This document shows positions 34,362 through 49,734 of a DNA stretch of 61,464 nucleotides, piece by piece. Where the stretch lies: positions 1-61,464 of IMG/VR virus record IMGVR_UViG_3300031673_000040; one strand, 5' to 3'. The stretch comes from a virus. Below the pieces are notes generated by a model that worked only from the letters and a program-made list of their open reading frames with translations, was not told where the DNA came from and searched no databases. Numbering within the stretch: position 1 is the first letter of the stretch; each line of letters starts with the position of its first letter. The translations under genes and the position numbers were made by a program.

Positions 34362-35873
34362 ATGGGTCTGGAAACTGATTTCTTTGAGCTATACGGCGGC
34401 CTTAACAGAGCATACGGCACTTACGTTCAAGGGCAAGTAAACGAAGTCAAGAATAAGATGGAGGGTAAGGCCCAGACCGTTTCGGGTACTTACGAACCTA
34501 GACTGTGGATTTCGCACCTAGCAGGTGACAAGGGCATTGGTGTAATTCCCATCACCGACGAAGCGACCTGCAATTGGGGCGCTATAGACATTGACGTCTA
34601 CCCACTCGATTTAGAAGCACTTGAAAAGAAACTGCAACAACTGAATTTTCCACTCGTTGTTCTCAGAACAAAGAGCGGCGGTGCGCACCTGACCATGTAC
34701 TTGAAGACGTACATCAGCGCGTCAACCGTCAGATCAAAACTCACAGAGTTCAGCGTAGCACTCGGCTATGGCGGTGTTGAGATTTACCCAAAGCAAACGA
34801 AACTTGCAAACGGGCGCGACACAGGCAACTGGCTCAACATGCCCTACTTCAATGCTCTTAAGACAACGCGCTATGCAATAAAAGACGGCGCACCTTTGTC
34901 GGTTGACGAGTTTGTTAAGTACGCAAGATCCAAAGCTATATCAGCAAAGCAACTCGCAGAATTCGAGGTAAAACTAAGCGATACGTTCGCTGACGGTCCG
35001 CCATGCCTGCAGATAATGGCAATGAATGGCGTCCCTGAAGGTGCTCGTAATAACGCGCTTTTCGCCATGGGCGTTTACGCCATGCTGAAATACGACGACG
35101 GCTGGGAAGCAGAGCTAGACTTAATCAATCGTAATGTGATGGTTCCGCCTTTGGCAGTGCGTGACGTTCAGATGATTGGGCGTTCACTTAGCAAGAAGGA
35201 CTACTTTTATCCCTGCAACAAGCCGCCATGCGTAAATCTGTGTAATAAAGATCTGTGCAAGAAACGCAAATTCGGTATAGCAGAACTCGACGCAAAAGAC
35301 CTCGGAATAAACCTTGGCGATCTTATAAAGGTAATGACAGATCCGCCTATTTGGTTTATTGACGTTGAGGGTGTTCGTATCGAGCTAGACACAGAGGATC
35401 TGGTAAGTCAGGAGCGATTTAGGAAACTTGTTGTATCTGCAATTAACAAGCTGCCTGGAAAGATTAAACTCGCTGATTACGAAAAGATGATTCGTGATAA
35501 ACTTGAGAATGTGCAGCTACAGGAAGCACCTGTTGAGTCGGGAACAAAGGGACGGATATCTTTCCATATCGAACAGTTTTTCAATGTCACAACACCTGCT
35601 CGTATTAAAGATGAAATCATCCTAGGTAGGCACTGGACAGATCCAAGCTCAAACGTTACGCATTTCCGTGGTGCGGACTTACTACGCTATCTCGAGATGC
35701 AGGGCTTGCGTTTAGATTCAAGACGCGTTTGGATCCTGCTAAAAGACATAAAGGGTGAGCAAGGAAATCTGAAGGTTAAAGGACGTGATGTACCTACCTG
35801 GAGTCTAGTGTTACGCAACGATGAAAATGAGTCTTTTGAAGTACCTGAAATAACTGGAGATACTACGTTTTGA
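34362..35873 (+). CDS. Primase-polymerase (AEP-type) / replication initiation protein
   Basis: GIGVIPI...NWGAIDIDVY contains the DxD motif. KSGGAHL contains the His motif typical of prim-pol domains. Confidence 0.6.
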   Translation: MGLETDFFELYGGLNRAYGTYVQGQVNEVKNKMEGKAQTVSGTYEPRLWISHLAGDKGIGVIPITDEATCNWGAIDIDVYPLDLEALEKKLQQLNFPLVVLRTKSGGAHLTMYLKTYISASTVRSKLTEFSVALGYGGVEIYPKQTKLANGRDTGNWLNMPYFNALKTTRYAIKDGAPLSVDEFVKYARSKAISAKQLAEFEVKLSDTFADGPPCLQIMAMNGVPEGARNNALFAMGVYAMLKYDDGWEAELDLINRNVMVPPLAVRDVQMIGRSLSKKDYFYPCNKPPCVNLCNKDLCKKRKFGIAELDAKDLGINLGDLIKVMTDPPIWFIDVEGVRIELDTEDLVSQERFRKLVVSAINKLPGKIKLADYEKMIRDKLENVQLQEAPVESGTKGRISFHIEQFFNVTTPARIKDEIILGRHWTDPSSNVTHFRGADLLRYLEMQGLRLDSRRVWILLKDIKGEQGNLKVKGRDVPTWSLVLRNDENESFEVPEITGDTTF

Positions 35874-37393: not shown

Positions 37394-37403
37394 GGAGTAG
37401 AAA

Positions 37404-38153
37404 ATGTCAAAAGCATTAGTTGTTTTATCGGGCGGGCAGGACTCCACAACCTGCTTATTCTGGGCCCTGTCACGTTTTGACGAAGTTCATGCAATAACTG
37501 TCAACTACGGTCAAAGACACATAATCGAGATAGAAGCTGCGAAAACTGTTGCTTCAATGGCGAAAACTGCGTCACACGAAATCATTGACCTGCCCGGCGT
37601 ATTGCAATCCGTTTCTCCTCTAACGAGTAATGCACCGCTTGAGAAGTATATTAACGCAGGGCAGATGGCGGAAGTCATTGGTGACAGAGTGGAGCTTACT
37701 TTCGTCCCAATGCGCAACATATTTTTCTTTACACTGGCGATGAACAGGGCTGTTGCACTCGGCTGTGCTGCGCTCGTAACCGGCATTTGTCAAGAAGACA
37801 ACGCAAACTATCCTGATTGCACTGAGCAGTTCCGTAACGACTTTGAATGCACTGCGAATTTCTCATTGGGTAGGAATGAAACTAACTGGATAGAAGTCAT
37901 CGCTCCTCTGATGTTCAAATCCAAGAAGGAAACTGTGCTGCTTGCGCGTGACCTGCCCGGCTGTTGGGAAGCTCTTGCGCACACGCATACGTCGTATGAC
38001 GGTAAGTACCCACCGACGGACATGAACCACTCCAACGTCCTTCGCGCAAAGGGTTTTGAAGATGCTGGCTTGCCTGACCCACTTGTTCTTCGCGCTATAA
38101 AAGAGGGTTTAATGGCGGTTCCGGATACACGGAATTACGATGTCATTGCGTGA
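37404..38153 (+). CDS. queC: 7-cyano-7-deazaguanine synthase (QueC family; atypical C-terminus)
   Basis: PP-loop VVLSGGQDSTTC, YGQRH and YPDC. The C-terminal region HTHTSYDGKYPPTDMNHSNVLRAKGF lacks the Cys cluster. Confidence 0.85.
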   Translation: MSKALVVLSGGQDSTTCLFWALSRFDEVHAITVNYGQRHIIEIEAAKTVASMAKTASHEIIDLPGVLQSVSPLTSNAPLEKYINAGQMAEVIGDRVELTFVPMRNIFFFTLAMNRAVALGCAALVTGICQEDNANYPDCTEQFRNDFECTANFSLGRNETNWIEVIAPLMFKSKKETVLLARDLPGCWEALAHTHTSYDGKYPPTDMNHSNVLRAKGFEDAGLPDPLVLRAIKEGLMAVPDTRNYDVIA

Positions 38154-38346
38154 GTGCATAGACGGCCCTTTAAAAGGAGCTGTTTTTAATCTACCGGAAG
38201 GAAGGGCCTCAGCGTTCTTTCATCGCCGGGAAGGGACTGGTCGTTACCTGCCGGTTGGCGACAAGTTCTTGAAGTTTGAATACTGGCGTAAAATGTCTGA
38301 TAAAGAAATAAAGGAGATGCAAAATGTCACGGATAACACAGTTTAG
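38140..38346 (+). CDS. Hypothetical small protein (68 aa)
   Basis: ORF overlapping the queC stop by 14 nt. Confidence 0.4.
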   Translation: MSLRECIDGPLKGAVFNLPEGRASAFFHRREGTGRYLPVGDKFLKFEYWRKMSDKEIKEMQNVTDNTV

Positions 38347-38506
38347 AAGTCTATCTGATCGAGAGCTACTTGCACTCGCAGAGAAAGACGTTCTGCCCAA
38401 CTTCATAGGGACACAGCGCCAGCAGGACATCGTTGTCGAGCTTGTCCAGCGACTCGCAATAGCAGGCCGCCGAGAGCCTAACGTAGGCGGGAAGGGCATA
38501 CTGTGA
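38324..38506 (+). CDS. Hypothetical small protein (60 aa)
   Basis: SD aaggag lies 7 nt upstream. GTGA overlap with queD. Confidence 0.5.
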   Translation: MSRITQFRSLSDRELLALAEKDVLPNFIGTQRQQDIVVELVQRLAIAGRREPNVGGKGIL

Positions 38507-38949
38507 TAACCGCCGAACGTTACCATGACATATCCGCCGGTCATCGCGTGTTTGGGCACGAAAGCAAATGCGCACACCTTCATGGACACAACTATCGTAT
38601 ACACTTCAAGATAGCTGGTGCTCCAACGGAGGACAATCAGGAGGGCTTGGACACTGTGGGTCGTGTTATCGACTTCTCCGTTATCAAAGAAAAACTCTGC
38701 ATGTGGCTCGAAGAGAAGTGGGATCACAAGTTCCTTGCTTGGAAAGAAGACCCATGGGCTGATTACTTGTACCAGATTGACCGTCAAGGCCTTGTCATAA
38801 CGCCGTTTAACCCAACTGCTGAGAACATGGCACACTATCTTATGTTCACTGTCGGACCCGAGCAACTTAAAGGCACTGGTTGCGTTCTCATATCTGTACG
38901 CGTTGAAGAAACGCGTAAGTGTACAGCAACCTCGGAGATATTCGTATGA
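38503..38949 (+). CDS. queD: 6-carboxy-5,6,7,8-tetrahydropterin synthase
   Basis: HRVFGHESKCAHLHGHNY contains the Cys and His-x-His Zn site. The size is typical of QueD/PTPS. Confidence 0.9.
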   Translation: MITAERYHDISAGHRVFGHESKCAHLHGHNYRIHFKIAGAPTEDNQEGLDTVGRVIDFSVIKEKLCMWLEEKWDHKFLAWKEDPWADYLYQIDRQGLVITPFNPTAENMAHYLMFTVGPEQLKGTGCVLISVRVEETRKCTATSEIFV

Positions 38950-39845
38950 GCAAGGAAAAGTACTATCTAAATCATCGTGAGATAGAGCGTCTGGCGTCTG
39001 CGGCAATAGCTCCTCACTTGATTCGTAGGGACTGCCAAACAACTGTTTACGCTGTCCCGAGAGGAGGTGTTCCAGCGGCCTACGCAATGGCCGCCGCCGG
39101 TCTCAATATACGTCTTGTTGACGTACCCGAAGATGCCGAACTGATAGTTGACGACATAATTGCCAGCGGCGCAACACGCGAACGTTATGCGCACCTAAAA
39201 GTACCGTTCGTATCTCTGATAGACCAACGAAAAGAGTCTATTTATTCTGGGAGATGGATTGTCTTTCCGTGGGAAGCAACTGACAAGAAGGATGATTCGT
39301 TTTCCGATAACATAACTCGCCTTTTGCAATTCATTGGCGAAGATCCGAAACGTGGCGGCCTAATTGAAACGCCTCAACGTGTCGTTAAAGCATGGGAAGA
39401 ATGGACGAGTGGCTATGGAAAAGATCCTGCAAAGATCCTTAAGGTATTTGACGACGGCGGCGAGTCTTACGACCAAATCGTCCTTGTCAGAGATATTCCT
39501 TTCTACAGCCATTGCGAACACCATCTCGCTCCTTTTTTCGGTACTGCTCACGTTGGGTACATTCCTAACGGGAGCATTGTTGGTCTTAGTAAGCTGCCTG
39601 AGGTTGTTGATATTTTTGCTAGACGTCTACAGGTACAAGAGCGTCTCACTAATCAGATTGCTGACGCTATTTGGGATAATCTGAAACCCAAAGCAGTGGG
39701 CGTTGTTGTGTCTGCTCGGCACTTGTGCATGGAATCACGGGGCAAGAAAAAGAGCGGTAGTTCCACTGTAACGAGTGCGCTGCGAGGAACAATGCTTACC
39801 GAACCTGACTGTCGTGCGGAGTTTTTCAACTTGATTAAACTGTAA
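38946..39845 (+). CDS. folE: Fusion protein: N-terminal type I phosphoribosyltransferase-like domain + GTP cyclohydrolase I
   Basis: N-terminal part: VPRGGVPAAY...ELIVDDIIASGAT (PRPP loop). C-terminal part: ETPQRVVKAW, FYSHCEHHLAPF and LQVQERLT (GCH-I). ATGA overlap with queD. Confidence 0.85.
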   Translation: MSKEKYYLNHREIERLASAAIAPHLIRRDCQTTVYAVPRGGVPAAYAMAAAGLNIRLVDVPEDAELIVDDIIASGATRERYAHLKVPFVSLIDQRKESIYSGRWIVFPWEATDKKDDSFSDNITRLLQFIGEDPKRGGLIETPQRVVKAWEEWTSGYGKDPAKILKVFDDGGESYDQIVLVRDIPFYSHCEHHLAPFFGTAHVGYIPNGSIVGLSKLPEVVDIFARRLQVQERLTNQIADAIWDNLKPKAVGVVVSARHLCMESRGKKKSGSSTVTSALRGTMLTEPDCRAEFFNLIKL

Positions 39846-39854
39846 CCTGAGGTA

Positions 39855-39883
39855 TTGCATAAGATTACGTGTTGTGCAATAAT
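39855..39883 (+). promoter_or_regulatory. Sigma70-like promoter TTGCAT-17-AATAAT
   Basis: Read directly: ttgcat aagattacgtgttgtgc aataat. Shares the TTGCATAAG core with the leftward operator palindromes. Confidence 0.5.
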
Positions 39884-39900
39884 ACAACTACTCAGGCGCT

Positions 39901-39926
39901 GTGGTGCGAGGAACAGTTCGCACCAC
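39901..39926 (+). other. Perfect 9-bp stem-loop in the folE-ligase gap
   Basis: gtggtgcga ggaacagt tcgcaccac, with no T-tract. Confidence 0.5.
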
Positions 39927-39954
39927 AACCGATGAGTCTATAACCGGAGGAAAT

Positions 39955-40857
39955 ATGAAGCCAATGAAATTTGAAAGTCTTATGGATCGCGATGGTAGCG
40001 TTCACCTGGAGCGCGTGATTTATCCGAAGTACGGCAGTGCAAAGATAGACGGTAATCGCTTGTATGTGGAAGATGGGCAAGCAAAGGCGTCGTCCGGTAA
40101 GCCAACAAAGAACGCGTACATTCGTGAATACCTGAGCAAGCCTGAGTTCGACGGTCTTGACGGTGAGGTGGTTGTCGGATCACCAACAGCAAAGGACGTT
40201 CGGCGTCGCACAAGTAGCGGCGTAAGCACGCTCTTCGGCGAACCTGACTTCACCTTCCTTGTGTTTGACGACAGAACAAACCCTAACTTAGCATTCATGC
40301 AGCGCCTTGAAAATGCTGCCGATCGTGTAAATGCTTTTGACGACAAGCGCATAAAGCTAGTCCCACATCTTCGCATAAGCGACATCTCTGACCTGCTCGG
40401 ATTCGAGAGCAAACTGCTCGAAGTAGGCTGGGAAGGCATCATGCTCCGTGACCCACTTGCGCCCTACAAAGCGGGAAAGACAACGGTTCGCGAGAATTGG
40501 GGCTTCAAACTGAAACGGTTTGAGGACGGCGAAGCAGTTATTATCGGTTCTTACGAAAGGATGCACAATGACAACGAAGCTACCACAAACGAACTTGGCG
40601 GTACCAGTCGTTCGTCGCACGTTGGAAATAAACGACCTGCAGGAGATCTTGGAGGCTTGGAAGTCCGGGATGTTAAAACCGGGGTTGAATTTAGTGTGGG
40701 AACCGGGTTTGACGCCGCAGTTCGTGTGGTTCTCTGGAACGAGCGTGAGACCCTTGAGGGGCGAATTATCACATATAAGCATTTCCCTATAGGTGCGAAG
40801 GACAAGCCAAATCTACCGTCATTCGTTGCATTCAGGGACGAGGATGATATATCGTGA
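39955..40857 (+). CDS. lig: ATP-dependent DNA ligase
   Basis: Adenylation motif SAKIDGNR (KxDG), plus EGIMLR and FKLKRF. SD ggagga upstream of the ATG at 39955. Confidence 0.85.
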   Translation: MKPMKFESLMDRDGSVHLERVIYPKYGSAKIDGNRLYVEDGQAKASSGKPTKNAYIREYLSKPEFDGLDGEVVVGSPTAKDVRRRTSSGVSTLFGEPDFTFLVFDDRTNPNLAFMQRLENAADRVNAFDDKRIKLVPHLRISDISDLLGFESKLLEVGWEGIMLRDPLAPYKAGKTTVRENWGFKLKRFEDGEAVIIGSYERMHNDNEATTNELGGTSRSSHVGNKRPAGDLGGLEVRDVKTGVEFSVGTGFDAAVRVVLWNERETLEGRIITYKHFPIGAKDKPNLPSFVAFRDEDDIS

Positions 40858-41195
40858 TTGGCGCACTTGGCGACCTTGTGTCGCAATACCTTTCAGTACC
40901 AAGAGAAGTCAGAGCGGCGGGTATGCCGAGTGACGAAGTACGCTGCATCGGTTGTAGCACCGTAGCAAAAGGAGAGGTAGAAACGCAAGCTCTGTTTTAT
41001 CACAGTAAAGCAGACACCCATAAACCAAACGGGATAACAGTGTGTAGGAAAGCAGGATCCGTCTTGCAGCCCTGCAAAGCATGTACCTGTAAAAAGCAAA
41101 GGAATAGTCGTGAACGAAACAAACAGCGAAAATCTAAAAGCACTCGGCAGCAGCACAACGTACTCGTACGACAAGCCCAACCCGGAACTCCTTGA
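40854..41195 (+). CDS. Zn-ribbon-like basic protein (113 aa), overlapping queF by 86 nt
   Basis: CIGC ... CKAC Cys pairs. GTGA overlap with the ligase stop. The Lys/Arg-rich tail is read in an alternative frame of the queF 5' end. Confidence 0.4.
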
Positions 41196-41529
41196 GTACT
41201 TTCCGTGCCCATTTGACGACCGCGTCGGCGGCTTGGTTCAGATTGAGGCGCCTGAGTTTACAAGCCTTTGCCCAAAGACGGGACAACCTGACTTTGCGAA
41301 GATCGTCATTGACTACATTCCCGAAGAGCGTTGCGTGGAATCGAAGTCCCTGAAACTGTACCTGGGTTCTTTCCGTATGCACGGCGAGTTCCACGAGTCT
41401 TGTGTTGCGCGTATCCATCGTGACCTGGCTTTGCTTCTGCGTCCTAAATGGTTGCGGGTTCAAGGTCAATTTACGCCGAGGGGCGGCATCAAGTTCTGGC
41501 CTACGGTTGAAAAGAACTGGACTGAATAA
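41110..41529 (+). CDS. queF: NADPH-dependent 7-cyano-7-deazaguanine reductase (unimodular YkvM type)
   Basis: Catalytic-Cys motif [14 protein letters not shown], QueF motif ESKSLKLYL, and TPRGGI. Confidence 0.9.
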
Positions 41530-42602
41530 TGTTCACCCGCACATACGAGCTATCCCTCAATAAAGGATACGTTGCTCATTGGGGACTCGCGGAAGCTGTG
41601 CGGGAACTTATACAGAACGCGCTGGACAGCGAATCACCCTTTGTTTATGAATTCAAGAATGACGGTGACGAGCATACTCTCAAGTTGCGTTCTGAGTTTA
41701 CGACCTTGTCTCCACAAACGCTGCTTCTTGGTTCAACAAGTAAAGCGGACAGCGAGGACAGCATCGGCAGTTTTGGCGAGGGCTACAAAATTGCGCTACT
41801 TGTTCTTACGCGACTGTTCAAACCCGTTAGCATCGCCAATGGAGATAAGTTGTGGGAGCCGCGATTTAAGTACAACTCCAAATTCGAGCAGGAACTTCTT
41901 GTTGTTGAGGAAAGCACACTGGCTTATAAGAATACCGGGCTTACGTTTGAGATACGTGGGTTGACGAGTGACGAGTGCGACGACATACGCGACTCCTGCT
42001 TGCGTATGCAGAGCGACATTGGGGCGATAAAGCAAACGCCATACGGCGACATCCTGCTTGAGCGTCCAGGTAAGCTCTACGTCGGTGGCCTGTTCATTTG
42101 CTCTACAGAACTCATACACGGCTACAACATCAAACCGTCCAACATCAAGTTGGAACGCGATAGGCAAACCGTCTCGTCGTGGGAATTAAGCGCCACGACG
42201 ACGAACATGTGGTACGCGACCGAAGAGTATGAAACGATCGCAAACATGATTAACGAGGGCGTCCCAGATGTTGCAGATGCCCAATGGAGTTCGCCGGCGC
42301 TTGTCAAAGAAGCATGTTACAGACTTTTCCGTGAACAGCACCCCGGTGCAATCATTGCGGAAAATCAAACTCATCTTAAAGAGCTTGTTGCCAAGGGTAT
42401 GGAAAAGGTCGTTTTCATAGGCGGGTCTATGTACGCAAACGTATCCAGTTCAAGAGCATACAGAAGCGAAACCCGTGTTGCTGTGGAGTCGATAAATGAC
42501 CGTCTTGTGCGGTGGCTTGGCGCAAATCGTGGTAAGATGCAAGCCGCTGCGATTGTTGCTTTTAAAGAACTGATTAGCGAATCGAAAGGCTGGCATAAGT
42601 AA
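41529..42602 (+). CDS. GHKL (Bergerat-fold) ATPase-like protein, function unknown
   Basis: N-box ELIQNALDS (ExxxNAxD) and G2-like box IGSFGEGYK (compare Hsp90 IGQFGVGFY). TAATG overlaps with queF upstream and dpdA downstream. Confidence 0.55.
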   Translation: MFTRTYELSLNKGYVAHWGLAEAVRELIQNALDSESPFVYEFKNDGDEHTLKLRSEFTTLSPQTLLLGSTSKADSEDSIGSFGEGYKIALLVLTRLFKPVSIANGDKLWEPRFKYNSKFEQELLVVEESTLAYKNTGLTFEIRGLTSDECDDIRDSCLRMQSDIGAIKQTPYGDILLERPGKLYVGGLFICSTELIHGYNIKPSNIKLERDRQTVSSWELSATTTNMWYATEEYETIANMINEGVPDVADAQWSSPALVKEACYRLFREQHPGAIIAENQTHLKELVAKGMEKVVFIGGSMYANVSSSRAYRSETRVAVESINDRLVRWLGANRGKMQAAAIVAFKELISESKGWHK

Positions 42603-43552
42603 TGCCTACCGTTAACTACTACTTCTCCGGCATTGGTAACTTCTCTGTTGAGCAGAAGGAGAAGCTATCAGGCTTATGCGAGTACCGTCTGCAATCGTGT
42701 CACAAGGAGTACGTGCGACAAACAGCGGACTGGATGTACTACGCGTCGCAGCATAAGAATACAGTTGAAATCATGCTGGACTCTGGTGCATTTACTGCGT
42801 GGAACAAAGGCAAGGTTATTGAGCTTGAACCCCTGATACAGGTGTATGGTGAGATGATTGAGAAGTACGAACATGGCTTGCGTAAGGTTTGGTTGATTAA
42901 CTTGGATAAGATTCCGGGTGAGCGAGGTAGAACAGCAAGCCACGAAGAACTCGAGGAGGCAATGCGTGAATCAGATAGAAATTACGAAATCCTTGTTAAG
43001 CATTTCGGCGATCGTGTACTTCCTGTATTCCATCAAAACGAGCCGAAGGAAAGGTTACGCAATGTCTGCCAAATGGCGGACTACATTTGTATCTCTCCAA
43101 GGAACGACGTCGCGGAAAAGTTCCGTATCTCCTGGGCGGCGGAAGTACATACGCTCCTTCTTAACGAGCCTAAGAGAGTACGAACTCATGGACTTGCGAC
43201 GACAGGGATGCACATGCTCAGAAACGTTGATTGGTTTTCGGCCGACTCTGCTTGGTGGATGCAAACCGCGATTAACGGGTCAATCTTCTACCTGGCACAC
43301 GATGGAGACTTACGCACAATCCAAGTATCGGAGAGAGCTGGTGCTCGTAAAGATGCGGGACAGCATTATACAACAATTCCGAGAGCAATGCAGAAAGTAA
43401 TAGACGACCGTCTTGCTATTCACGGAATCACAATTAAAGAAGTTGCAGAGCACCATACGCCAAGGTTCGTCGCCTGCATCTACGAAGTTCTTGAATGGCT
43501 GAAAGTGGCGAAGCCGAAACCGCTACACCACGTAGGATTATTCGACCTATGA
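42602..43552 (+). CDS. dpdA: DpdA-like DNA-guanine transglycosylase (TGT superfamily)
   Basis: IMLDSGAFTAWNKG matches the catalytic Asp-Ser-Gly motif of TGT/DpdA. Supported by the que gene context. Confidence 0.7.
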   Translation: MPTVNYYFSGIGNFSVEQKEKLSGLCEYRLQSCHKEYVRQTADWMYYASQHKNTVEIMLDSGAFTAWNKGKVIELEPLIQVYGEMIEKYEHGLRKVWLINLDKIPGERGRTASHEELEEAMRESDRNYEILVKHFGDRVLPVFHQNEPKERLRNVCQMADYICISPRNDVAEKFRISWAAEVHTLLLNEPKRVRTHGLATTGMHMLRNVDWFSADSAWWMQTAINGSIFYLAHDGDLRTIQVSERAGARKDAGQHYTTIPRAMQKVIDDRLAIHGITIKEVAEHHTPRFVACIYEVLEWLKVAKPKPLHHVGLFDL

Positions 43553-43809
43553 TATACGTTCTAGCATGTTGCCAAGCCTGTGCAGAAGTTGTTGCTCGAG
43601 ATGCAGGTATCGGCTATAGCAGATGGCAAAGTGTAAACAGCGCGGAAACTCTCCGTGGCCTACGCAACGTAGAGGTGCTATGCTGCACGAATTTAAGCAG
43701 TAGACGTGACTACAACGAACTTTACGAGGAACTTAACGTTCGTGGGATAACATGTAGGGTAATTGTCCATAATGGCTTTAAACAAGAAGGAGTGCAAAAT
43801 GCAACGTAA
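43549..43809 (+). CDS. Hypothetical protein (86 aa; start MIYVLACC)
   Basis: ATGA overlap with dpdA. Confidence 0.5.
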   Translation: MIYVLACCQACAEVVARDAGIGYSRWQSVNSAETLRGLRNVEVLCCTNLSSRRDYNELYEELNVRGITCRVIVHNGFKQEGVQNAT

Positions 43810-44550: not shown

Positions 44551-45089
44551 GACTAATCGGCCTAGCAGGACCAGCGGGGTCTGGTAAAGACACAATAGCG
44601 GACTACCTTGTCGAAACGTATGACTACGATAAGATGTCATTCGCAGCACCCATCAAAGACGCACTCTGCGCAATGTTCAATTGGGATCCAAGTAAGTTGA
44701 ACGACCGTGAGTGGAAGGAAGCTGTGCTCCCTGATATTGGCAAGAGCCCGCGTCAACTGATGCAAACCCTTGGTACAGAATGGGGGCGCAATCTTGTCAA
44801 CCCTCATTTGTGGCTAATCATCGCAAAAGGTGAAATCGAGTATGCGCAGCATCACGATTTTGATATCGTTGTATCTGATGTCCGTTTTGAGAACGAAGCT
44901 AAAATGATTCGTGAGATGGGCGGCGTTATTTGGCACATAGAACGCGATCCAAAAGCAGCTAAGATGGCACATGCAAGCGAAGCTGGAGTTGAGCGAACGC
45001 TTGACGACGTTCTTTTTCTCAATACCGGGACGATTGAGGCTGCGTACGGTATTGCTGATTTTATCATCGAGGCTTTCCCGACATGCTAG
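44547..45089 (+). CDS. Deoxynucleoside monophosphate kinase
   Basis: P-loop GLAGPAGSGKDT. The size and FENE/DVRF pattern resemble phage dNMP kinases. Confidence 0.65.
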   Translation: MRLIGLAGPAGSGKDTIADYLVETYDYDKMSFAAPIKDALCAMFNWDPSKLNDREWKEAVLPDIGKSPRQLMQTLGTEWGRNLVNPHLWLIIAKGEIEYAQHHDFDIVVSDVRFENEAKMIREMGGVIWHIERDPKAAKMAHASEAGVERTLDDVLFLNTGTIEAAYGIADFIIEAFPTC

Positions 45090-46045
45090 ATACTCTCCAG
45101 TTGGTCTTTGGAGCAGTTGCGACCAAGGATATTCAACCTGTTCTTACGCATGTGCTTATCTACCCCGGGCGACTGCAAGGGGGCGACGGTATAATAACGA
45201 TTGATGCACCGTTTGACTGTGACCTACCTACGATGGCAGTGCCCGGACAGAAATTTCTCAACTCTGTTATAGCGTGTGACGGTACGCCGAAGCTTGCTGT
45301 AACTGACGGCGGAAAAATGTCAATCAAGAAAGGTTCGTTCAAAGCATACCTGTCCACATTGCCAGCCGAAAATTTCCCCATGGATGAAAAGAAAGGTGAG
45401 CCGCAGAAAGTTCCCGATACGTTTTTGCTTGCACTAAAGTCGTTAAGACCATTTGTGTCCAAAGATGCCAGTCGCCCTTGGTCAATGGGCATAAAGTTTT
45501 CTGGATGTTTTTGTTTCGCAACAAACAATATCGTGCTTGCTAGGCTTCCCATCGACTGGACGGCACCCGACATTGTCCTGCCTGCTGTTGCCATAAATGC
45601 TCTTATAGAAATGCGTGAGTTACCTTCAACGATGTATGTTGAAGAAGGCTCTGCTACGTTTGAGTACAACGATGGGTCGTGGTTAAAGACTCGCACAACA
45701 ACCGCCGAGTGGCCGAATGTCGAAGCGATGCTGGAAAAGTTCTTATTTGACCTAGATCCTGTCCCTGAGGGCTTGCTGGCGGCTTTGCGCAAGGTGAAGA
45801 AGTTCTGCACCAACGTCAAGTTCCCACAGGTAACACTTAGCGAGGAAGGGGTATCGTCCGATGACGGCGGCGGTGACATTGCGTCGGTTGAAGGTCTCAA
45901 GTTGCATAAGAGCCTCTTCAACGCAGACATGCTGGAACTCGTTCTCGAAAGTGCAACCCATGTGGATTTCTCGGGGTACCCTTCCGCTTGCACCTTCTCA
46001 GGTGCAGACAATCTTGTTGGATTATTTATTGGAGTAAAACCTTGA
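45083..46045 (+). CDS. Sliding-clamp (DNA polymerase III beta)-like protein
   Basis: The N-terminus LQLVFGAVATKDIQPVLTHVLIY...GIITIDA parallels the beta-clamp N-terminal pattern. A 320-aa ORF upstream of the polymerase gene. Confidence 0.45.
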   Translation: MLDTLQLVFGAVATKDIQPVLTHVLIYPGRLQGGDGIITIDAPFDCDLPTMAVPGQKFLNSVIACDGTPKLAVTDGGKMSIKKGSFKAYLSTLPAENFPMDEKKGEPQKVPDTFLLALKSLRPFVSKDASRPWSMGIKFSGCFCFATNNIVLARLPIDWTAPDIVLPAVAINALIEMRELPSTMYVEEGSATFEYNDGSWLKTRTTTAEWPNVEAMLEKFLFDLDPVPEGLLAALRKVKKFCTNVKFPQVTLSEEGVSSDDGGGDIASVEGLKLHKSLFNADMLELVLESATHVDFSGYPSACTFSGADNLVGLFIGVKP

Positions 46046-48966: not shown

Positions 48967-49734
48967 TCATCTTAAATTTAAGATCTTGTGTAGTTGCAGA
49001 GATAGCTTGTGTCCGTGTTTCATGCAGAGGGTCACAGCGAGCTCCACATTCGCTTGCGTAGCAACTCCATCGCGCATGTGGGTAGTAACATCCTCATGTA
49101 CGTAGTACTCTTCCATAGGCTGGAGATACACTTGACGGTTGGCGAGTACTTTCTCGCTAGGCGGCGCCAGTGCTGCGCTCTTCTCACCTGCTTGTGTGTT
49201 CGTTATGGGTATGCCATGCTCTTCTGTATGATCGTCGAATGTCGATATAAGATACTTGTACGCGTCTGCATTTGCTTCAACCCGCGGATGCAACTTGGGT
49301 GTTTTTGGAGACACCACAATCAATGTCTCAAGGCGGTTGCCAAGCTCCGGACGCAGGTCTTCCTCAAGCAAGCTCTCAGGCCATACAGTGCCCGCTGTCT
49401 CAATCTGCACTTGCATTCCGTTCTCGCGTAGAGCACGAATCAATGGGGCTATCTCTTGCATCATTGGCTCGCCGCCGGTTAGCACAACAAGACGGTTACC
49501 AAACTCGATGCAGTCGCTAACGATGTTTTCTACGCTGACAACTGACGACGACTTCGTGTCGAAATCAGTATCACAGAAAGTGCAGCGCAGATTGCAACCG
49601 CCCAAGCGAACAAATGTGGCGGGTGTGCCAGCAAGCGGACCTTCGCCTTGTATGGTTGGGAACAGTTCACGCAGGAGAAGGAACCCTTCTTCTGGCAGGT
49701 GTGACTTCTTAAGTACTGGGTTATTTCCGAACAT
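48967..49734 (-). CDS. queE: 7-carboxy-7-deazaguanine synthase (radical SAM)
   Basis: GGCNLRCTFCDT contains the CxxxCxxC cluster. Also LTGGEP. SD aaggagga upstream. Confidence 0.9.
   Translation of the reverse strand: MFGNNPVLKKSHLPEEGFLLLRELFPTIQGEGPLAGTPATFVRLGGCNLRCTFCDTDFDTKSSSVVSVENIVSDCIEFGNRLVVLTGGEPMMQEIAPLIRALRENGMQVQIETAGTVWPESLLEEDLRPELGNRLETLIVVSPKTPKLHPRVEANADAYKYLISTFDDHTEEHGIPITNTQAGEKSAALAPPSEKVLANRQVYLQPMEEYYVHEDVTTHMRDGVATQANVELAVTLCMKHGHKLSLQLHKILNLR

Follow-up and report, generated by a model that had tools for sequence, protein, structure and literature searches.

The bacterial DNA transglycosylase DpdA acts in complex with DpdB (PMC10516641), whereas the phage enzymes are viewed as acting alone. 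DpdA2 of Vibrio phage VH7D, when expressed alone, puts preQ1 into Escherichia coli DNA (PMC10516641), and no ATPase is mentioned in phage dpdA clusters in that paper (PMC10516641) or in the paper on phage Iggy. The window analysed here, which is the whole 61,464 nucleotides (nt) of IMG/VR virus record IMGVR_UViG_3300031673_000040, places between queF and dpdA an open reading frame (ORF) for a GHKL-fold protein of 357 amino acids (aa; ORF list, 41529-42602, plus strand, ATG start). The original prediction, made from the sequence, saw in this protein a possible ATP-dependent partner of DpdA, or else the catalyst of a further modification step. The analysis points elsewhere: the ORF is quite probably an ordinary member of PHROG 6077, a mobile accessory gene of phage early replication and recombination regions, and not a dedicated partner of DpdA.

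The protein matches PHROG 6077 at full length (E 8.5e-95; aa 4-356 against profile positions 2-364 of 366). The category of this family is "unknown function", and the description of the gene as uncharacterized was accurate. A word-indexed search returned 746 homologues. In an exhaustive profile search, 3,435 representative clusters passed E ≤ 1e-3, and 1,124 also passed E ≤ 1e-30. The top matches of full length are nearly all 345-401 aa long, which indicates that the protein is a stand-alone architecture. Homologues are found in 114 GenBank phage records, including the Pseudomonas phages Epa43, Epa5, PaMx11, and Ab18, phages of Vibrio, Pseudoalteromonas, and Edwardsiella, and 137-155-kb phages of Pectobacterium, Cronobacter, Erwinia, Klebsiella, and Escherichia. 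They are labelled there as "hypothetical protein", "HATPase", "histidine kinase-like ATPase", and once as "RIIA lysis inhibitor". Identity to the window protein is 43-46% for the homologues of Epa43, Epa5, PaMx11 (gp71, 44%), and AIIMS-Plu-RaNi, 42% for ORF34 of Ab18, and 28% for MS_040 of Vibrio phage VPMS1. Over unrelated phages and prophages, the distribution of the family is patchy and of an accessory kind.

A count of homologues near dpdA had been set beforehand as the test of a partnership, and no enrichment was seen. In IMG/VR, 80 loci with homologues of 42-60% identity, each with up to 10 kb of flank per side, were searched by tblastn and phmmer with the window DpdA, QueF, QueC, QueD, and FolE. 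Genes of the dpdA/queF pathway were present in one of them, locus L015, where folE, ligase, queF, dpdA (68% identity), a deoxynucleoside monophosphate (dNMP) kinase gene, a clamp-like gene, and PolA follow in the order of the window. In this locus queF and dpdA are only about 200 nt apart, and the GHKL gene is found on the other strand at a distance of 6.6 kb from dpdA. Locus L091 carries queD, queC, folE, queF, and dpdA (45% identity); there queF directly adjoins dpdA, and a homologue of the GHKL gene is absent within 10 kb. Among eight close relatives of the protein (58-67% identity), the order queF-GHKL-dpdA is found in the sister phage P0002 (locus L084) only, whose GHKL protein is 67% identical and whose genes are syntenic with the window over 13 kb, from helicase to PolA. 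Four of the eight (P0004, P0006, P0007, and P0012; 63-67% identity) have the order ThyX, HAD_PNKP, short-chain dehydrogenase (SDR), GHKL, RNase T, and DNA polymerase III alpha; P0025 has GIY-YIG, GHKL, PDDEXK exonuclease, VRR-NUC, and SNF2; and in P0011 and P0018 the homologue stands amid small ORFs. Among GenBank phages, the window DpdA has tblastn matches in 145 records, annotated as queuine tRNA-ribosyltransferase or DpdA, which include the DpdA-annotated genes of phage Iggy and the transglycosylases of phages 9g, Dp-1, and phiSM. No accession is common to the listed phages with a GHKL homologue (88 of 114) and the listed phages with DpdA (95 of 145). Since homologues are not enriched next to dpdA in other phages, the proposal of a DpdA partner is not supported. 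Nor is the proposal of an enzyme of the deazaguanine pathway, or of a further modification step; in the window, moreover, the pathway genes are dispersed.

Elsewhere, the family recurs in regions of replication and recombination. In PaMx11, Ab18, and PAKlein3, the gene order is ligase, small ORF, GHKL, and then a hydrolase and an exonuclease, the ligase being the recurrent upstream neighbor in phages of the PaMx11/Ab18 type. In VPMS1, the homologue stands in the series primase, Dda helicase, DenV, GHKL, DUF2815, and PolA. At 29 IMG/VR loci, the GHKL gene is followed by phrog_7838 "exonuclease", and at 25 of these the next gene matches both Pfam Sipho_Gp157 and the PHROG annotation "Mu Gam-like end protection". 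SSB-like genes are also among the neighbors of PHROG 6077 members. The module of the window has DNA ligase, SNF2 helicase, archaeo-eukaryotic primase (AEP), UvrD-like helicase, ThyX, DUF932, and RNase T genes in common with the GHKL loci elsewhere.

A separate observation concerns loci L085-L088 and L104 (63-67% identity), in which the homologue comes after ThyX, HAD_PNKP, and short-chain dehydrogenase genes, with an Nmad5 domain protein encoded upstream in L085. This may be another nucleotide-modification neighborhood, unrelated to deazaguanine. A general link of the family to DNA hypermodification, as the 5-AcNmdU of PaMx11 and the ThyX, Nmad5, HAD_PNKP, and SDR neighbors could be taken to indicate, was considered and rejected, because the largest neighborhood class is the recombination-type one of exonuclease and Gp157/Mu Gam-like genes, which is free of modification genes. 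It was also rejected because the thymidine hypermodification steps of PaMx11 have been reconstituted from gp46-48 with M6 gp54 as kinase, without gp71 (PMC8989533).

Within the window, the genes follow in the order queC, queD, folE, DNA ligase, queF, GHKL, dpdA, MazG, dNMP kinase, clamp-like gene, and PolA, so that the deazaguanine genes are dispersed across the replication module. The two genes that flank the GHKL ORF were confirmed as a unimodular preQ0 reductase gene, queF (41110-41529, plus strand; Pfam QueF, E 1.4e-31), and a DNA transglycosylase gene of the dpdA type (TGT/DpdA; 42602-43552, plus strand; phrog_887, E 4.7e-45). The real start of queF may lie downstream of the GTG of the longest ORF, as queF of the sister phage is called at 136 aa. 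The ATP-dependent DNA ligase gene (39901-40857, plus strand; Pfam DNA_ligase_OB_2 and DNA_ligase_A_M) stands amid the deazaguanine genes and is as "wedged" between folE and queF as the GHKL gene is between queF and dpdA. Both junctions of the GHKL ORF read TAATG as claimed (41527-41531 and 42600-42604, plus strand): the queF stop TAA (41527-41529) shares one base with the GHKL start ATG (41529-41531), and a single base is likewise common to the GHKL stop TAA (42600-42602) and the dpdA start ATG (42602-42604). The three genes had been taken for one unit on this ground. The co-orientation and tight packing stand, but the overlaps are not special, because an overlap of 1 or 4 bases is seen in 14 of the window's 60 pairs of neighboring same-strand ORFs, among them junctions upstream of the replication genes (20.7-25.8 kb) and the one between primase and helicase. 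The TAATG overlaps reflect tight packing and probably co-transcription, not partnership.

Taken together with the interleaving of deazaguanine genes in the same replication region of this lineage, the flanking of the GHKL gene by queF and dpdA is explained as happenstance. In the simplest history, a resident accessory gene of the module would have come to be flanked by deazaguanine genes in one small clade, and its position at this locus looks like the product of gene shuffling rather than the mark of a new DNA-modification partner.

In GHKL ATPases, the Glu of the N-box is the general base, the Asn of the N-box is a Mg ligand, and the Asp of the G1 box binds adenine N6. An AlphaFold2 model of the 357-aa protein, built on 56 homologues, has a mean pLDDT of 90.4 and a pTM of 0.80. 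Foldseek with this model returned Hsp90 (E 1.7e-6), MORC4 (E 2.2e-6, TMq 0.42), Topo VI-B (E 7.9e-6), and ParE/GyrB (E about 3e-4 to 1e-3), most with probability 0.99-1.00. Because a confident model matches Hsp90, MORC4, Topo VI-B, ParE, and GyrB, the assignment to the GHKL (Bergerat) fold was correct. Sequence methods place the protein less firmly. Pfam HATPase_c_3 (PF13589) matches aa 67-122 only, at 18.2 bits (E 0.0027) and below the gathering threshold of 25 bits, and NCBIfam P_loop_sacsin matches aa 23-87, from N-box to G2 box, at 20.3 bits (E 5.7e-4) with a cut-off of 50. Searches of PDB chain sequences with the protein and with profiles of two homologue sets (A1 and A3, below) gave nothing significant, and PADLOC gave only a trivial match (TmtA, E 0.015). 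A precomputed weak Pfam tag, PF25856 (MPN635_N), was not reproduced by Pfam scans and was not used.

Conservation was assessed in two sets of homologues, A1 (56 homologues, 52-67% identity) and A3 (a wider set of 56 sequences, 27-54% identity); the features that follow are on the plus strand. The N-box (motif I) is ELIQNALD at aa 26-33 (41604-41627), within the string ELIQNALDS at aa 26-34. Its residues E26, N30, and D33 are invariant in A1 and are kept in 55, 55, and 56 of the 56 sequences of A3, respectively. The G2 box or ATP-lid loop (motif III), IGSFGEGYK at aa 79-87 (41763-41789), is preceded by an STSK motif and aligns with "IGGFGLGSK" of T4 RIIA and "IGQFGVGFY" of HtpG. In A1, G80, F82, G83, E84, G85, and K87 are invariant; in A3, G80 and G85 remain so, and at least 90% of the sequences have G83, E84, and K87. 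Both boxes had been predicted; their key residues are invariant or nearly so across the two sets, and neither box is a chance string.

The position of the G1 box (motif II) is occupied by LRSEFTTL (aa 53-60, 41685-41708), a degenerate segment without DxGxG. In the hhalign profile alignment it lies opposite "CRDFGPGM" of RIIA, with S55 facing the Asp (D81 of RIIA), and in the AlphaFold2 model S55 is at the end of strand 48-55. The column of aa 55 (41691-41693) in A3 holds S in 29 sequences, N in 16, T in 8, and Q in 3, with D or E in none of the 56, and both glycines of the G1 box are absent. The lack of a canonical DxGxG box, which had been remarked on for the single protein, is therefore family-wide. 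A candidate for motif IV, G137-L-T139-F, is kept in close relatives; in A3, position 137 is D, G, or N, and Thr is present at 139 in 24 of 56. At the boundary of the two domains lies LERDRQTV (aa 208-215, 42150-42173), in which R210-D211-R212 is invariant in both A1 and A3. Beyond it is a mostly helical C-terminal domain (aa 216-357, 42174-42599). When aa 208-357 were modeled alone with AlphaFold2, the pLDDT was 89.4, and Foldseek found no structural relative of the C-terminal domain in the PDB (best E 1.4, TM below 0.25).

By analogy with other GHKL proteins, the protein would be a nucleotide-regulated switch. A ligand in the pocket of N-box and G2 box would bring about closure of the lid and dimerization of the N-domain, the R210-D211-R212 segment may be a sensor of the bound phosphate, and the orphan C-terminal domain would engage a target such as DNA ends, recombination intermediates, or a host factor. 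The conservation of N-box, glycine lid, and RDR across 27-67% identity argues for chemistry with a ligand or phosphate. Since the adenine-binding Asp is replaced by S, N, T, or Q, this ligand may not be ATP bound in the canonical manner, and the uniformity of the replacement suggests a non-canonical recognition of nucleotide. As for the target, phage DNA transactions are the foremost candidate without commanding a majority; counter-defence of the RIIA kind is a more doubtful one, and some other target is less likely again. The first is favored by the gene context and the second by the closest annotated relatives.

Several points weigh against this account. The arrangement queF-GHKL-dpdA, with both 1-nt overlaps, has been kept in the sister phage P0002/L084 at 67% identity. 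Co-occurrence was scored in flanks of at most 10 kb and in the listed GenBank rows, and very divergent DpdA subfamilies (DpdA3, DpdA4) might escape tblastn and phmmer with the window DpdA as query. With regard to mechanism, the absent G1 Asp could mean that no nucleotide is bound at all, and the scheme is drawn from GHKL analogy, as none of the family members has been assigned a function by experiment.

The alternative that survives best, although it is clearly the less probable reading, is counter-defence in the manner of RIIA. The protein would then be a short relative of the T4 RIIA N-domain, with a variable C-terminal domain of its own, that shields the infection from abortive-infection systems of host or prophage and does not act on phage DNA. 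In BFVD, the best Foldseek matches are the family's own uncharacterized members (TM 0.6-0.8), followed mostly by RIIA (E about 5e-9 to 1e-7, TMq about 0.44), which is thus the nearest annotated structure. Against an RIIA N-domain profile built from nine phages, hhalign with the family profile gave a probability of 92.6-94.2% (E 1.1e-7 to 4.6e-7), while T4 RIIA as a single sequence was matched only weakly (22-46 columns at a probability of 40-70%). The lid motif S-[ST]-S-K-A-x-S-x-D-x-I-G-x-F-G-x-G-x-K, which is common to the family and T4 RIIA, and the patchy accessory occurrence described above are also in keeping with such a role. However, the confident part of the alignment is restricted to the generic GHKL core, PHROG 6077 is the top family and no match to an RIIA PHROG was obtained, and the neighbors are consistently genes of DNA metabolism. 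Furthermore, the canonical DxGxG of RIIA (D81/G83/G85) is invariant, whereas members of PHROG 6077 have S, N, T, or Q at the Asp, and the 357 aa of the window protein compare with about 640-920 aa in the RIIA proteins sampled.

An unlikely alternative is that the protein is a pseudo-ATPase or scaffold, which kept the Bergerat fold as a structural adaptor and lost nucleotide binding along with the G1 Asp. The complete absence of D or E at this position in the 56 diverse members is what such a loss would leave, and the scores below threshold for HATPase_c_3 and the NCBIfam sacsin domain agree with it. Yet down to 27% identity the N-box residues Glu, Asn, and Asp, the lid glycines, and the RDR segment are invariant or nearly so, and such conservation would be difficult to account for if no chemistry with a ligand or phosphate took place.

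A partnership with DpdA, analogous to that of bacterial DpdB, or a further step on preQ1-DNA, is very improbable. The co-orientation with queF and dpdA, the 1-nt overlap on each side, the retention of the arrangement in the sister phage, and the precedent of the bacterial DpdA-DpdB complex (PMC10516641) all speak for it. Against these stand the co-occurrence counts, the closest DpdA homologues, in which queF and dpdA are directly adjacent and the GHKL gene is absent or relocated, and the activity of phage DpdA2 alone (PMC10516641). Nor does the protein resemble the ParB-like DpdB, for its matches in Pfam and NCBIfam are only of the GHKL or sacsin type and below threshold; in addition, short overlaps are common in this genome and the ligase is equally wedged. 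A lineage-specific co-option into the preQ1-DNA pathway in the window and its sister phage only, for example for clamping or opening DNA or for sequence targeting, would explain the frame-tight overlap between queF and dpdA, but is held to be just as improbable.

The remaining deazaguanine genes were assigned by Pfam scans. Upstream on the plus strand are queC (37404-38153; Pfam QueC, 3.7e-48), queD (38503-38949; Pfam PTPS, 4.1e-22), and folE (38919-39845; Pfam GTP_cyclohydroI, 1.2e-69). A 254-aa radical-SAM ORF on the opposite strand (48967-49734, minus strand; Pfam Radical_SAM, 8.9e-11, and Fer4_12, with a CxxxCxxC motif), 5.4 kb from dpdA, is a probable queE on the basis of pathway context. 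With it, the pathway from preQ0 to preQ1 would be complete and dispersed in the replication module. Megablast with 37400-43600 as query found nothing among GenBank phages, and the phage is therefore taken to be uncultivated.

Some features of this region are of separate interest. The folE ORF (308 aa) has its GTP cyclohydrolase I domain at aa 130-306, preceded by some 125 aa of N-terminal extension, in which a phosphoribosyltransferase-like stretch is weakly matched (Pribosyltran, E 5.8e-4, aa 75-90). The sister phage L084 retains this extension and L091 most of it, with an alignment from aa 43, and it could be a fused phosphoribosyltransferase-like domain in a phage deazaguanine pathway. Between ligase and queF lies a Cys-rich ORF of 113 aa (40854-41195, plus strand) with CxxC...CxxC..C and a basic tail, which has no family match and runs 86 nt into the longest ORF of queF. 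A short ORF at the same position in L084 is 30% identical. PaMx11 and Ab18 have some small ORF, not necessarily a related one, between ligase and GHKL gene. Between the dNMP kinase gene and PolA, a 320-aa ORF (45083-46045, plus strand) with a weak DnaN match (TIGR00663, E 7e-4) may be a sliding clamp, and its homologue adjoins PolA in L015, L084, and L091. The primase gene of the module (34362-35873, plus strand) encodes an enzyme of AEP-TOTE type (PF22548, E 3.3e-9) and shares 4 bases with the UvrD-like helicase gene. The AEP-TOTE primase domain is otherwise described from the TOTE conflict system.

A phage-specific ATPase partner of DpdA, if true, would have altered the view that phage DNA transglycosylases act alone, and the evidence leaves that view standing. 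There remains a common, uncharacterized GHKL family of phages, in which the nucleotide pocket is systematically altered and the C-terminal domain is an orphan. As it recurs in replication and recombination regions, including those of the cultivable phages PaMx11, Ab18, and VPMS1, the family is a reasonable target within phage "dark matter".

Compared with known systems, the window protein is RIIA-like at the level of the domain, the Bergerat fold, the N-box RE..N..D, and the lid motif being common to T4 RIIA. It is not an RIIA member, because RIIA has DxGxG together with an invariant PSRE motif (S277/R278/E279) and is two to three times as long (725 aa in T4). RIIA is paired with rIIB, and its large C-terminal region differs as well, the PHROG 6077 family having its own helical domain of 140 aa. 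An equation of the RDR motif with the PSRE motif is not supported, as the only alignment that pairs both is not significant. Hsp90, MORC, Topo VI-B, and GyrB match in fold with E-values of 1.7e-6 to about 1e-3 but TM-scores of only 0.26-0.42; they have N-box and G2 box in common with the window protein, which lacks the G1 Asp, and its C-terminal domain is not recognizable as the transducer or middle domain of cellular GHKL ATPases. For the Hsp90-like SRR domain of sacsin, the NCBIfam score (20.3 bits) falls far short of the curated cut-off (50), and membership is at most putative; one metagenomic phage homologue is annotated "sacsin-beta sandwich". The likeness to bacterial DpdB is limited to the idea of an accessory protein encoded beside DpdA, and neither in sequence nor in fold was a relationship detected. 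No homology to DpdB, DpdC, the Que enzymes, or DpdL/M/N was found in Pfam, NCBIfam, PHROG, or PADLOC, whose only matches are of the GHKL/sacsin type or of unknown function. With the other members of PHROG 6077, by contrast, the window protein shares its length of about 360 aa and its motifs, shows no structural difference, and differs in its neighbors alone. The gene of the window is neither surprising nor specific to its locus, but an added member of a known, widespread, and uncharacterized phage family.

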